The translations under genes were made by a program, and so were the position numbers. The notes beneath the pieces are model-generated. The model searched no databases and was not told the origin of the DNA. It saw only the letters and a list, made by a program, of their open reading frames with translations. A DNA stretch of 64,000 nucleotides, from positions 11,346,001-11,410,000 of the forward strand of contig CM069148.1 of the NCBI GenBank assembly GCA_035221665.1, in the 5' to 3' direction. Shown piece after piece: positions 17,504 through 57,350 of the stretch. This DNA is from Okamejei kenojei. Its lineage: Eukaryota. The first letter of the stretch is position 1; every line of letters begins with the position of its first letter.

Positions 17504-18136
17504 GTCGTATTATTGTTGGATGATGTTGTTCAGGGGCAGCATGTAATTGAAAACCAAGAGATGTGTATACACCGATTCCTTTGAGGCTCCAGAGGTGGCA
17601 CTTTCTCAGAGAACTAGGGATGAGCAGTAAGTGAGAGTTTATCAGTATTGTCTATATTTTGAACAAATTGTCTCAATGGTAAACAGACAAAATAAATTGC
17701 TATTAATCAAAGTAATGGCATTGTTGTGTTTTTCAAAGTATGAATGATTTTTTTTAATTCACCTCAAAAATGATCAGGTGTGCTCCACTTTCTGAACAGT
17801 TCATTTACCTTAAAAGACAGCTGAAAAACATTTACTGCCAGAACATACTGGGCTTTAAATAAATGAATATACTCAATAATTATCTGCTACATTAAGCCTT
17901 TGTAACAATTAAATGTGGTAGCTATAAGTGCATATTCCCTTATTAATACGTTAATAGAATTCATTAAAAAGTTATTCAATCTGAAGCCATTGCCAAGCCA
18001 AGTTATCCACCACAGAAAATGTAAAATTATAGCCACTTTATTTGTATGTTCTTTTTAAAAGATATTTTGATACGCTGATTTATTATTGCTGCAAGAAAAT
18101 CAGGGAAATTGTGCCATTCTTGGTTGAGAACGTTAA

Positions 18137-18494
18137 GGGCCTGTCCCACTTACGCGACCTTTACAGGCGACTGCCGGCACGCGCCATAGGTCGCCGAAAT
18201 TTTCAACATGTTGAAAATTTAGCGGCGACCAGAAAGACGCTACGACTCTTTGGAGACCTTTCACGACCATAGGAGACCTCTCACGACCATGCAGGAGACC
18301 CCTGGCAACATGTTGCGGGTGACCTCTCATGATCATAGGAGACCTGTCACGATCATACAGCCTATGGTCGTGAGAGTCTCCAAAGAGTCGTAGCGTCTTT
18401 CTGGTCGCCGCTGAATTTTCAACGTTGAAAATTTTGGCGACCTATGACGTGTGCCAGCAGTCGTCTGTAAAGGTCACGTAAGCGGGAGAGGCCT
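18137..18494. mobile_element. Palindromic MITE flanked by TTAA (Kolobok- or PIF/Harbinger-type)
   Basis: TTAA|gggcctgtcccactt ... aagcgggagaggcct|TTAA; about 135-bp inverted arms and central 20-bp tandem units. Confidence 0.85.
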
Positions 18495-18629
18495 TTAAGA
18501 AATCATTTGTCCTTAATGTCAATTTAAATCTGGGTTTGTTATCGGACATCCACCGAACTTCACTAAATCATCACAAAAACAGTTTTGGGACAGTGTAAAC
18601 AAACCTCCAATTCCAAAGTGAAAATTAAA

Positions 18630-25454: not shown

Positions 25455-26320
25455 CTAGACTAAGTGGGAGCCGTTGGGTCCCTGTCACACGGAAGGCCTG
25501 GTCCCCCAACGCAACCCGTTCCCCAACGCAATATACCACCACTCACCTGTTCCCCAACGCCACTCGTTCCCCCAACGCAGTATTCCACCACTCACGCCTA
25601 TCCTCCTCCCATCAAATCCACCCCTCCCTGTCCCTCTACTCCCCCCCTCTATCCCACCATGCCGATCACCCCGGACCCCTTCTATCCACCTCCATTCCCC
25701 CCTGCACTCCACTACCTCTCTACCACACTCCCTCCCTCTCCCTCCCTCTCCCTTATCGCTCTATCCCTGCCCTCATCCCTCCCTCATTCCACTCTCCCCC
25801 CTCACTCATCCCACTCTCCCTCCCTCATCCCTCTCTCTCCCCCATGCTGTGGGCCAGGCTGCGGCGCTCCCTCTCTCCGTGTAGTGGTATGGCCCCCGAT
25901 GAGCTGGTACACCTTGACCCAGGCCCCGGGCTTGGGCACGACACCAGCCCTCAGCTCGGCCGCCGCCTGGGCTCCAGTCCAGTCCCCGACCATCTCCGGG
26001 CTCGTCCCTGACCCAGTACCCAGGCTCGTTCTTGGTTCCTGCCTAGGCCCAGTTCCCGGGCTCGTCCTTGGCTCTAGTTCGGGCCCAGTCACCAGGCTCA
26101 GCCTGCGGCGCCACCTTCCCCACCAGGTACTGTGCGGCCGCCACTCCTCGGGCTTTTACAATATACCATCGATCGGAATTAAACGTGTTGCACTCGCAGC
26201 ACGGGAGAATGGTGAGTAAGCTGGTGAAAAATCATAGTGCTATCGCGTACCGTTTTTGCACAAATAGAAAAACCACGCAATCAGGAAGAGCACAAGATCA
26301 GAGTTTTATTTATGTATAGA
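25455..26320 (-). mobile_element. Non-autonomous Helitron (866 bp)
   Basis: Minus strand starts TC(TATAC) and ends CTAG; hairpin gggaccc-aac-ggctccc lies 11 nt before the 3' end; inserted between host A and T with no TSD. Confidence 0.82.
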
Positions 26321-26489
26321 TATTTTTCAAGGAACTTTATTTGAACAATTTTGTCCAAATAAGTATTTCAACAGAGGAAATACCAAAAGTATTATATGTT
26401 TCTCACAGATTAAGATAAAATCTCTCAAAATATGACAACTTTCCAGTAACCAACTAGTAATTAATTCTGCACAACCCCGCGTTAGAACA

Positions 26490-26745
26490 AAGAGCAATGC
26501 AGCAGAGAAACTGGCCCTTTGGCCCACAATGTCCTTGACAAATATGATTTCAAGGTAGACTAATTGCACGTGATTCATATCCCAGAATACTCTACATATC
26601 CATGTGGCTATCTAAAAGCCTCTTAAACCTTTTATATCTGCCTCCACTACCACTTCTGGCAGTATGTTCCAGGTACCAACCACCATAGTGTAAAAAAACA
26701 GCCCCGCACATCTCCTTTAAACTTGGCCCTCTCATCTTTAACCTT
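26490..26745 (-). mobile_element. CR1 3' end fragment
   Basis: ggccctttggcccacaatgtc..ctatctaaaagcctcttaa..ccccgcacatctcctttaaac. Confidence 0.85.
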
Positions 26746-43164: not shown

Positions 43165-44720
43165 CCAGACTGGGCGATCAAACCTGCCGACAAGGGAGGT
43201 GCCATGGTAGTCTGGCACGCTGATCTCTACAAGGCTGAGGCCACGCGCCAACTCTCAGACACCTCCTCCTATTTATCCTTAGACCATGACCCCACAGATG
43301 AGCACCAGGCCACTATCTCTAGCACTATCACTGACTAAATCACTTCCGACTCCCTGCCCTCCCAAGCCTCCAAACTCATCGTTCCCCAGCCCCGCATGGC
43401 CCGATTTTACCTTCTCCCCAAAATCCACAAACCTGGCTGTCCTGGCAGATCTGTTATTTCTGCCTGTTCGTGTCCTACCAAAGTTATTTCCACATACCTC
43501 GTTCCATCCTATCCCCCCTGGTTAAATCCCTCCCTCCCTATGTTCAAGACACCTCACACGCTCTTCGTCTACTCCAGGACTTCCGTTCTCTACGCCCCCA
43601 TTCCCTCATCTGACATCCACTATAAACCCACTGACTACCATGGCTATCTGGACTACACTTCTTCCCATCCTGCTTCCTGTAAGGACTCCATCCCCTACTC
43701 CCAATTCCTCCATTTATGCTGCATCTGCACCCAGGATGAGGTGTTCCACATCAGGGCATCGGAGATGTCCTCATTCTTCAGGGAATGGAGGTTCCCCCTT
43801 CTACTATAGATGAAGCTCTCACCAGTGTCTCTTCTAAAACCCAAAACTCTGCTCTCACTCCATATCCCCCCACTCGTAACAAGGGCAGAGTCCCCCTTGT
43901 CCTCACCTTCCACCCATCACCTACAAGAAATAATCCTCCGACATTTTCGCCACCTCGAATGGGATCCCACCGCTGGCCACATTTTCCCATCTCCTCCCCT
44001 GTCTGCTTTCCGCAGAGACTGCTCCCTTCGTAACTCCCTGGTTAATTCGTCCCTTCCCACCCAAACCACCCCCTCTCCTGGCATTTTCCCTTGCAACCGC
44101 AGGAAATGCTACACATGTCGCTTTACCTCTCCCCTTGACTCCATTCAAGGACCCAAGCAGTCTTCCCAGGTGCGGCAGAGGTTCACCTGCACCTCCTCCA
44201 ACTTCATTTATTGCATCCGCTGCTCTAGGTGTCTGCTGCTCTACATCGGTGAGACCAAGCGAAGGCTTGGCGATCGCTTCGCCCAACACCTGCGCTCGGT
44301 TCGCATTAACCTGCCTGATCTCTCGGTGGCTCAGCACTTCAATTCCCCCTTCCATTCCGAATCCGACCTTTCTGTCCTGGGCCTCCTCCATGGCCAGAGT
44401 GAGGACCACCGTAAATTGGAGGAGCCGCACCTCATATTTCGCTTGAGCAGTTTGCACCCCAGTGGTATGAACATTGACTTCTCTAATTTCAGGTAGTCCC
44501 TGCTTTCTCCTCCCCTTCTCAGCTCTCCCTCAGCCCACTGTCTCCGCCTCTTCCTTTCTTCTTCCCGCCCTCCCCCACCACCCTCACATCAGTCTGAAGA
44601 GAGTCTCAACCTGAAACGTTGCCTGTTTCCTTCACTCCATAGATGCTGCCTCACCTGCTGAGTTTCTCCAGCATTTTTGTCTACCTTCGATTTTCCAGCA
44701 TCTGACGTTCCTTCTTAAAC
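43165..44720 (+). mobile_element. Penelope-like element (Neptune type), 5'-truncated and internally deleted, GIY-YIG frame open
   Basis: IKPADKGGA, FYLLPKIHK, YKPTD..YLDYTSSHP and IYCIRC..LYIGETKRRLGDRF..H motifs; 13-bp TSD gataatctattca at 43152-43164 and 44721-44733. Confidence 0.95.
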
Positions 44721-53009: not shown

Positions 53010-53159
53010 CTGTACTACTGGCAAGTTTTGGTATCGCCATGCTATTGACATGGAATCTTGGAGTGCGGCAGCAGAAGTGATATCCGCCAAATTGTCCTCT
53101 GTCTCTTTGTTAGATTCTTTAATCTCTATCACATCATCAAGCAGAGGGGCGGGAAGCTC
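53010..53159 (-). CDS. ELP4: ELP4 coding exon (equivalent to exon 4), 150 bp, phase 0/0
   Basis: Acceptor tttttcggatttaatag|, donor |gtacag. Translates ELPAPLLDDVIEIKESNKETEDNLADITSAAALQDSMSIAWRYQNLPVVQ (ELPAPLLDD and IAWRYQ motifs). Confidence 0.96.
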
Positions 53160-54750: not shown

Positions 54751-56401
54751 AATTATGTATGTTTCAGTAGACATGTTCTATTTTCTCAACACGACGGAAT
54801 ACACGCCCTAGTCTGCTCTAAATCTCTAAGTATGACAAGCCACCAACCCAGGAGCTAGACTGGTGAATCTTCACTGACAATCCACCATGCCAAATATATC
54901 CTCATTTAGCAAAGGAAATCAAACTGTACATTGCATCCAGCTGTTGTATTCTAAGTTACTATAAATGCCACAATGTTTCAAATTGCATTATTTAATAAAG
55001 TATCAGGAATAGAACAATGTTATAGTCAATAACTTACAAAAAGTCCTCCATCCCAACTGGGGCTTGGCACCATAAAAAGGTCATGTGAAGTTGGATTTAG
55101 GAAAATATTCAGGTCTTAGCTGAAATTTATTCTTGACAAAGTACACTGCTCAGTCTGGAATATAATTTACTGAATTTTATTTAATGACATTTATAAGATG
55201 AAACTGTTAATCTTAGCCTGGCTGATATATGGCTGTTGACTTAATTTTGCACTTACTTTCCTGTACAAATCTTTCACAACTAAATCTATTTATTAAATGG
55301 CCCAACTGAATTTCTTCATTAGCCTTCTTTGTTTTTACAGGAAAAATGCACCACTACTGATACATGACCCTTCTTACAAGTAAAATTCTCCAGAGCCTAA
55401 TAAAACTTAAAATACCCCACAATTAACGAGGCTTAACCTCACACCCTTCTAAGCTACCTTAATTGCTTGCGAATTAACTGAAATAAAGACATTGCATACC
55501 ACTCTACTCCATTTACAATAAAGGAGAAAAGATTATATTATGTCAAAGTTAAACTTCGATCACTGGCTTATGAGTGGGGGTAATTCATAATTCTTAAACA
55601 GCACTACTGAGAAAAGAACTTTGATCTTCACAGTCACACACAGCTTTTCAGCAATGTAATGAATGAAAGACCTTTGAAACACCAGTTGATCTGCATGATA
55701 ATCTTAGTATGGGATTAGCAGATAATTTATTAAAAATCAAACATGGAGTTGGATTTCTATAAAGTTAAACTCAACAAGTATATGCTTGAAAGTAATTCAT
55801 TGAAACATTGTGTTAGTGTGTAACCAACTCTATGAATTTTCCCTACCCCCAAAAGATATCCATCGAGAACAAAATAAAAATCCAATTCTGCTCTCAGCTT
55901 TTTTCATTATAAACACCAATAATTAAATTCTAGAATTATTACATTATTAGTTCAGAAATCAGAGTTCAAATTCCACCATGACTGTTGGGGAATTTAAATA
56001 TACTTTATGAGATATGTTTCTAAAAATATTGTCAGGGTAACTGAAATAATCGTAAAGTTGTTACAGTGAAGTAATACTCTTTTTCAAAAGATCGAGCACT
56101 TGTGGCACAGCACAGAGAAGTTATTGACTATAAAAAATCATTCTATTCCTGATACTTCGTTAAATAGAAGATTAAAACCAGATTGACCACTCAATATGAA
56201 TATCAGATTTGGACACAAGAGACACAATAAGCGCCCAGTCGGCACACAAGATACTTCAGATGCTGGAATCTGGTGCAAAAAACATACTTGCTGGCGGAAC
56301 TCGTTTGTTATCAAGCCAAATCAATCTTGTTTTGACATCTGGTCATTTGTGCCTAAATTTGGTGAGATAACCCACAAACCAGATACAAGAACTTACCAAT
56401 T

Positions 56402-56414
56402 CATGGGCCGCGAA

Positions 56415-56456
<42 letters not shown>

Positions 56457-56490
56457 CTGTGGCCCCCCCCACTTTTTTGGCTAGACATGT
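56402..56490 (+). mobile_element. hAT-like DNA transposon left terminus
   Basis: catgggccgcgaaacc-(G)39-ctgtggcccccccacttttt resembles the G-run/C-run subterminal hairpin of some hAT termini. No right end found. Confidence 0.55.
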
Positions 56491-56573
56491 TTCAATGCCT
56501 CCGGCTTTGGGAGGCGCTGCAGTGCTCTGAGAAACCTGGTCGTGGGTGTTGGAGAGCCGGGGCGGAGGGAGGG

Positions 56574-56815
56574 ATGGAAGCAGAACCAGCGGCGGGTGCA
56601 GATGCGGACGGGAAGCCGGGGCTGGCGAGTGTTTGCCGGGCTGGCGAGTTGCTCCCCGCAGCTCCAGCCATGGAGCAGCCTCAGTGCAAGAGTTGGAGGA
56701 GTCGGAAGCGTTGCACCGCTGCCGTGAGAGTCTCTGTGCCGAATTCGCCATGGTGAACGGCATGGACCAGGCTGCGGCTCAGTGCATCCAGGAGGACAAC
56801 CAGCGGCTGCTGGAA
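56574..56815 (+). pseudogene. TDP2: TDP2-like exon 1 copy (UBA-like N-terminus), frameshifted, with splice donor
   Basis: RESLCAEFAMVNGMDQAAAQCIQEDNQRLLE versus remembered human RRLLCVEFASVASCDAAVAQCFLAENDWEME, followed directly by GTAGGT (56816-56821). In-frame ATGs at 56574 and 56670 are one base out of frame with the domain. Confidence 0.75.
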
Positions 56816-56920
56816 GTAGGTGCCGAGCACAGGGTAGAAGCAGTGCAAGATAGTGGCCTTCAAATGGGGGTGGTTGGAGAAAGCATCCTGCTTGCCTGCT
56901 AGACTTTCACTTACTGTAAC

Positions 56921-57120
56921 TGCAGGAAAATTGTTCCCAATGTTGGGGGAGTCCAAAACCAGGGGTCACAGTTTAAGAATAAGGGGTTGGCCATTTAGGA
57001 CTGAGATGAGGACAAACTTTCTTCACCCAGAGAGTTGTGCATCTGTGTAATTATCTGCCACAGAAGGCAGTGGAGGCCAATTCACTGGATGTTTTCAAGA
57101 GAGAGTTACATTTAGCTCTC
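56921..57120 (+). mobile_element. CR1 fragment
   Basis: AGKLFPMLGESKTRGHSLRIRG. Confidence 0.9.
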
Positions 57121-57124
57121 ACCC

Positions 57125-57350
57125 GCCAAGTGTCCCAGCTACACTACCTGCTTTTGGTCCATATCCCTCCAAACCTGTCCTATCCATGTATCAGTCTGTT
57201 TCTTAAATGTTGGGATAGCCCCTGCCTCAACTACCTCCTCTGGCAGCTTGTTCCATACACCCACCACCCTTTGTGTGGAAAAAGTTACCCCTCATATTCC
57301 TATGAAATCTTTTCCCCTTCGCCTTAAATCTGTCCTCTGGTCCTCGATTT
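57125..57350 (-). mobile_element. CR1 (HER1-like) 3' fragment
   Basis: Closely similar to 33380-33610. Confidence 0.88.

Follow-up and report, generated by a model that had tools for sequence, protein, structure and literature searches.

A captured TDP2 first exon in intron 3 of skate ELP4: a probable decayed member of a large terminal-inverted-repeat transposon family

Transposons that carry pieces of host genes are described from animals and plants. A survey of 100 animal genomes reported 4 multicopy cases among 370 Pack-TIRs (Tan et al. 2021, PMC8277862); most captures were single-copy, and the multicopy examples it describes, such as Pack-hAT-N8_XT (CAPSL 5' UTR) and Ssk-FB4, have 3-4 copies. 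For the elephant shark this source gives 0, and its supplements list no skate or TDP2 entry. Capture by template switching or gap repair is modelled there. In vespertilionid bats, the element HelibatN3 is reported to have multiplied a first exon to about 1,000 copies (Thomas et al. 2014, PMC4224331). Among hAT-type groups, 5-bp target duplications are described as defining hAT5 and 6-bp duplications as defining hAT6 (PMC12730594, PMC9004415). No prior description of the TDP2-carrying skate family analysed here was found in the literature searched, a scope that leaves Repbase, Dfam and subscription journals outside.

The locus lies in a 64,000-nucleotide stretch of the Okamejei kenojei genome (the window), in which a sequence-only reading had recognized a TDP2 first exon behind a hAT-like transposon end at 56402-56920. 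The features it named were all found in place: the abrupt GC- and CpG-rich island, the left motif, the G39 run, the GC box, the ATGs, the TDP2-like peptide and the GTAGGT donor. The extent it gave was too short, as the element, in standalone (non-nested) form, spans 56402-57349. All parts are on the plus strand. The left terminal inverted repeat (56402-56417), recognized from genome-wide end matches and from the paired ends of complete copies, is preceded by CAATT (56397-56401), the candidate left half of a target duplication of the family's 5-bp length. The remainder of the left transposon arm (56418-56494), common to cargo-free sisters, consists of the G39 run (56418-56456 by direct reading), a C-run and a T-run. 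Block alignment with C2:145,913,050-145,913,230 assigns 56495-56573, with an approximate left boundary, to the TDP2 upstream region and 5' UTR, including the GC box at 56559-56565. The exon 1 coding cargo (56574-56815, 242 bp, frameshifted) encodes the N-terminal half of the UBA-like domain, has ATGs at 56574 and 56670, and yields the quoted peptide from 56690-56815, again by direct reading. The intron 1 splice donor, GTAGGT at 56816-56821, matches the position of the true gene's intron. It is followed by intron 1 cargo with two pre-existing repeat fragments (56822-57349), collinear with the true gene to about C2:145,914,222, missing about 250-265 bp at 57119/57120, and truncated on the right at 57349. 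Positions 56501-57000 have 59% GC and a CpG observed/expected ratio of 0.58, against 33-35% GC in the preceding three kilobases. Further GC- or CpG-rich patches of the window are at 25501-26500, 43501-44500 and 18001-18500.

The divergence of this copy from the family majority, 6.1%, is close to the family median of 5.8% (n=79). The frameshift noted earlier is real; its cause is a 10-bp deletion near 56693 (242 versus 252 bp) rather than the proposed single base. The L-to-Q and W-to-R changes that had been taken as signs of decay are private to this copy, other copies reading T at both 56790 and 56804. Neither the right end nor an 8-bp duplication was found in the window or the next 8 kb, in agreement with the initial report of no right terminal repeat or target duplication. 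The 57349/57350 junction is bridged by contigs of the related organisms A, B and E with 2, 1 and 10 differences, respectively. Outside the element, the unique flanking sequence of these contigs is about 3% (A), less than 1% (B) and 4-5% (E) divergent from the window. Organism B may be the source sample, so its contig does not count as independent evidence. Bridging in A and E indicates that insertion and truncation are older than the split from these two organisms. Because sister copies show the same end and G-run and contigs of three organisms bridge the right junction, the one compared with contigs, misassembly of this copy is unlikely.

The TDP2 identity of the peptide proposed in the sequence-only reading was borne out. 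The sole PDB match of the peptide is the TDP2 chain 6q00_B (E 0.012), and an intact-frame sister copy shares 73% identity (55/75 residues, E 1.6e-23) with Rhinoraja TDP2. A Pfam search of the window's own peptides gave no UBA match, and five intact copies match UBA_4 weakly, all below the cut-off. The true gene, expected elsewhere in the genome, is present on contig C2 with seven exons in all. Its exon 1 is at 145,913,232-145,913,501 (L049:8232-8501), exons 2-7 are 82-100% identical to Amblyraja TDP2, and no transposon arm aligns at exon 1, the parent gene thus not being flanked by element ends. One large and two partial copies of the family lie 17-25 kb upstream on the opposite strand (L047:3596-4572, L047:5022-5230, L048:1089-1252). 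A segmental duplication nearby (L053-L057, C2:145.71-145.76 Mb) holds partial TDP2 duplicates, one exon 1 and two last exons; the last exons carry stops or frameshifts, and one duplicate, full of small indels, may be a poorly polished false duplicate.

The element is collinear with the true gene over C2:145,913,215-145,914,222, and the cargo of complete elements runs from the upstream region across exon 1 and its donor into intron 1, of which about 700 bp are kept, two repeat fragments of TDP2's own intron among them. The retention of donor and intron 1 with these fragments implies DNA-level capture, as originally suggested, and not retrocopying. A processed pseudogene was rejected, as intron 1 follows exon 1 without exon joining and exon 2 does not follow in the element. 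Helitron capture was likewise rejected on the presence of both inverted ends and target duplications. The family majority exon is 252 bp with an open frame. A single left junction is common to all eight copies aligned (8/8), which points to one capture. The divergence of the copies from present TDP2 is 12% (exon) and 9% (intron), with many additional indels, and so exceeds the 6% that separates them from their own majority.

The family is large. At least 1,551 genome matches to a 25-base exon-end motif (up to 2 mismatches; control 0) were obtained in 2.76 Gb searched, a count that takes in the window copy and probably the host exon. The total may be near 2,000 copies, an estimate based on the motif catching roughly four-fifths of copies at 6-7% divergence. 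All 40 scored DNA matches, one of them the window itself, are 88-100% identical over most of 644 bases. All three related organisms compared (A, B and E) have the family in abundance; their summed contig depths were not used as copy counts. Three predicted proteins in public assemblies are element-derived.

The repeated terminus anticipated from the left motif alone is present, a genome search returning many copies with a matching end. The inner element begins with CATGGGCCGCGGAACC and ends with ...GCTCCGCGGCCCCTG, an imperfect inverse of about 15 bp; the left end has 271 genome matches, the right end 701, and controls 0. Complete copies have paired terminal inverted repeats, of which the ELP4-intron copy keeps the left only. 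Thirty loci picked by the left end comprise 18 with the exon, 10 cargo-free sisters and 2 with another insert. The cargo-free sisters have the same arms and measure 460-880 bp where both ends were found. Four loci (L178, L191, L145, L157) combine the same inner ends with other GC-rich inserts, and further host sequences may be captured.

Among 18 non-nested complete elements, cargo-free sisters included, a 5-bp duplication is exact in 7 and has at most one mismatch in 10 (shuffled control: mean 0.56, maximum 4). The filter that defined this set left out L179, whose duplication is exact. Eight of the 18 fall outside the one-mismatch fit, two of them fitting with a shift of 1-2 bases, and none shows a 6- or 8-bp duplication. 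The 5-bp sequences differ between copies. The family duplication is therefore 5 bp and not the 8 bp that had been expected (0/18).

About two-thirds of the sampled copies are nested inside a second, outer element; by eye, 20 of 30 right-end loci run on into one shared flank. The outer element is about 2-4 kb long and has inverted ends of its own; its duplication is 6 bp (exact in 6/21, at most one mismatch in 9/21, shuffled maximum 0); 12 of the 21 fall outside the one-mismatch fit, and an 8-bp duplication occurs in 0/21. The target pentamer GTTCA is single at empty sites and doubled around some nested copies. The reading of all 168 empty-site matches as empty outer elements was rejected, being true for only 1 of 20 loci examined, L243, where the outer element is complete, empty and has GTTCA once. 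The remaining loci have the same target sequence, mostly within a separate palindromic repeat. This GC-rich palindromic family, which holds the nested copy's target site, is seen at L228-L247. A young nested subfamily (L141, L144, L146, L159, L163, L166) has a frameshifted exon and a GTAAGT donor, nearer the splice consensus than the original donor.

The hAT-like assignment made at the outset stands in part. With an 8-bp duplication in 0/18 inner and 0/21 outer elements, a canonical 8-bp hAT is excluded, and the inner element is plausibly hAT5-like, its enzyme class being judged from the duplication length; the outer element would by the same measure be hAT6-like. No transposase gene was found with inner or outer ends within 1.5-kb flanks at the best 30 of 150 PF05699 loci or the best 30 of 95 PF14291 loci. 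A hAT transposase gene remnant lies in ELP4 intron 2 itself (L214 and L257, C18:11,432,674-11,435,491, minus strand), and the TDP2 family's ends were not found beside it. These 60 hAT loci without a matching enzyme leave some room for a carrier of non-hAT type, for instance Transib or a further cut-and-paste superfamily that makes 5-bp duplications, a reading we consider unlikely yet a genuine competitor. Duplications of 5 bp are a Transib trait as well, and count in its favor. Transib ends, however, start with CAC, whereas the skate ends start with CAT or CAG, and the short imperfect repeats and GC-rich subterminal runs resemble hAT non-autonomous elements, which counts against Transib. A hAT carrier is also in line with the report of hAT5 from fish (PMC9004415).

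Comparison of the host exon with the copies revealed a strongly directional difference. The host exon differs from the family majority by 21 AT-to-GC changes and 1 opposite change over 234 sites, against 12 and 6 over 288 sites in the intron; 12 of the 21 fall outside the CpG-decay class. The polarity of these changes rests on outgroup proteins. Of the 20 residues that differ, 14 match other skates in the element and 5 in the host, with one tie, and four of the five host-siding residues fall at the 24-bp deletion missing from long-form copies. The host exon lacks the ancestral start methionine, at or near which the ray and shark proteins having exon 1 begin. At the donor the host gene has GC; use of a GT and of an AG acceptor, each four bases on, would likewise keep the frame. 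In related-species RNA, where orthologue and element contigs are inseparable beyond L118:1291, no spliced TDP2 reads were found at the true exon 1. To judge from these alignments, the copies appear to keep the older exon sequence and the host exon to have taken an AT-to-GC burst. The plain explanation, from general background, is ordinary GC-biased conversion at a CpG island.

A bolder reading is that the 1,500 or more copies themselves reshaped the donor, through a post-capture AT-to-GC burst driven by GC-biased conversion or by escape from transposon silencing. This is a tentative idea that we think is probably wrong. On this reading the burst removed the start codon common to sharks and rays and changed the donor from GT to GC; if so, the dead copies would be a dated fossil series of the ancestral exon, and a vertebrate gene-capture conflict would be legible in the donor sequence. 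Feedback of captured copies on donor genes is supported in maize (10.1101/777037). In the tree, two long-form copies group with the host (support 96/93). The host branch measures 0.19 versus 0.06-0.08, and indels, as well as any delay separating capture from spread, have probably lengthened it. Two states are common to the host and later copies and absent from the two long-form copies grouped with the host, which argues against a simple story. The long-form copies (L193, L183, L168, L175) retain 24 bp absent from most copies; two have outgroup-like and two host-like states, which suggests parallel change or gene conversion.

The same comparison bears on whether the cargo came from the host's own TDP2 at all. 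It might derive from another skate lineage by horizontal transfer, or from a lost TDP2 paralog: the element peptide is nearer to Amblyraja exon 1 (65/81) than to the host's (58/78), the 14 of 20 residues siding with outgroup skates point the same way, TDP2 is locally duplicated in the host, and Amblyraja has two TDP2 proteins, encoded on contigs of equal length. Against this, the ratio of 21 to 1 is what a host-side burst would leave, some states common to host and element are missing from outgroup proteins, the host groups with long-form copies (96/93), and the family is abundant in each of the three related organisms. A foreign or paralogous source is accordingly rated as improbable, and capture from the host gene is preferred.

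The copies decay neutrally. The pN/pS ratio is 0.66 across 28 end-picked copies, compared with 0.67±0.07 and 0.71±0.07 in neutral simulations using the exon and intron mutation spectra. Constraint was therefore rejected, the raw pN/pS of 0.57-0.68 equalling the neutral expectation after mutation-spectrum simulation. The ATG, open frame and GT are kept together in 3 of 28 end-picked copies, and 18 of 27 copies are frameshifted. The youngest supported clade (9 rows, support 100/100) is largely frameshifted, so the reading frame is not needed for spread.

Expression was assessed in one poly(A) run of a related species, from 7.3 million reads, 6% of the run. With all copies taken together, the exon reaches a depth of about 10-16, with reads on both strands. 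No splicing was seen at the donor: among the matches listed, 23 of 23 covering reads continue into the intron, and 17 loose read ends at the donor region read the element's intron. The possible promoter and use of the 56816 donor raised earlier thus found no backing in this RNA.

The proposed antisense placement within ELP4 intron 3 was upheld. ELP4 is encoded on the minus strand. Exons 1 (C18:11,444,0xx), 2 (near 11,438,730) and 3 (C18:11,412,487-624, about 66487-66624 in window numbering) are all to the right of the window, and exon 4, identified by PF05625 matches and translation, is at 53010-53159. The TDP2-carrying copy lies 3.2 kb past exon 4, on the side away from a paired-box gene that faces ELP4 (C18:11,205,307-11,206,234) about 196 kb from the copy. 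A mouse table of PAX6 enhancers and hypersensitive sites (PMC3248410) places them on the PAX6 side of Elp4 exon 4; it stops at that exon and is hence silent on intron 3. With at least 1,551 dispersed copies, the chance of one per 64-kb window is a few percent, so that a site near PAX6 needs no special cause. The significance attached to the PAX6 regulatory domain accordingly loses most of its weight; the location looks incidental and adds little.

A function of this copy in the PAX6-ELP4 domain, as antisense promoter, splice donor or enhancer, is very improbable. It would account for the retained GC box, two ATGs and canonical donor, the insertion is common to three organisms with flanks up to 3-5% apart, and a captured first exon in the bat Helitron gives a transcript a splice site (PMC4224331). 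The copy is nevertheless frameshifted, has two deletions and an ordinary 6.1% divergence, and sits beyond ELP4 exon 4, some 196 kb from the paired box; exon RNA is sparse family-wide (a both-strand depth of about 10-16 from 7.3 million reads), and all 23 donor reads, which come from a related species and are not assignable to this copy, run through. The best reading is that it is probably an inert passenger.

A retrocopy or assembly artefact has next to no chance, and for the family as a whole is refuted: the long G-run at the left junction would fit an artefact, but donor and intron are kept with exon 2 absent, sister copies repeat the end and G-run, and the right junction, the one compared with contigs, is bridged in organism B with one difference.

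The reading that best joins these observations, to which we assign a probability of about 85%, is that the ELP4-intron copy is a decayed member of a skate hAT-type terminal-inverted-repeat family that spread a captured TDP2 5' end. A small cargo-free element with matching terminal inverted repeats exists, and the cargo is genomic TDP2, presumably taken up by template switching or gap repair in a single event within the skate lineage. The family was spread to at least 1,551 places, most likely by cut-and-paste enzymes of hAT type supplied in trans, plausibly hAT5- and hAT6-like. One copy entered a second element, duplicating GTTCA, and the composite spread in turn with 6-bp duplications. Copies, the young frameshifted subfamily included, decay neutrally, the one in ELP4 intron 3 being a right-truncated and probably inert example. 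A Pack-type transposon moving a TDP2 exon, as first envisaged, fits this reading; the framing as a single event gives way to a large family, and a promoter or donor role is not upheld.

The copy number lies far above that of animal terminal-repeat gene capture found reported, on the scale of bat Helitrons, and most of the family arose by hitch-hiking in a second transposon, a two-stage route. More than 1,500 GC-rich first exons with splice donors are scattered in skate genomes as raw material for chimeric transcripts, and the copies are a source of false TDP2 annotations. The family also makes it possible to ask directly whether mass capture acts back on a donor gene.

Like the animal Pack-TIRs described in PMC8277862, the skate elements are non-autonomous, have terminal repeats, carry GC-rich 5' sequence taken from an unlinked host gene, have moved repeatedly with different target duplications, and derive from a parent gene without flanking termini. 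What sets them apart is copy number (at least 1,551), the 5-bp length of the duplication, cargo that includes a coding exon and its donor, and a second spreading round within another element. HelibatN3 is a rolling-circle Helitron (PMC4224331), whereas the skate element has paired inverted ends and target duplications. Plant Pack-MULE, Pack-hAT and Pack-CACTA elements (PMC8903248) share DNA-level capture and spread of gene fragments as well as nesting; in that source, plant hAT members have 8-bp duplications, against 5 bp for the skate inner element, and the largest Pack-TYPE clusters named hold somewhat more than 100 elements, below the skate family. The inner 5-bp and outer 6-bp duplications and short terminal repeats resemble those of the hAT5 and hAT6 groups (PMC9004415, PMC12730594), which are set by transposase phylogeny; no enzyme matching the skate ends was found at the 60 hAT loci examined. 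The skate family is thus of the known Pack-TIR type, unusual in its scale and its two-stage spread.
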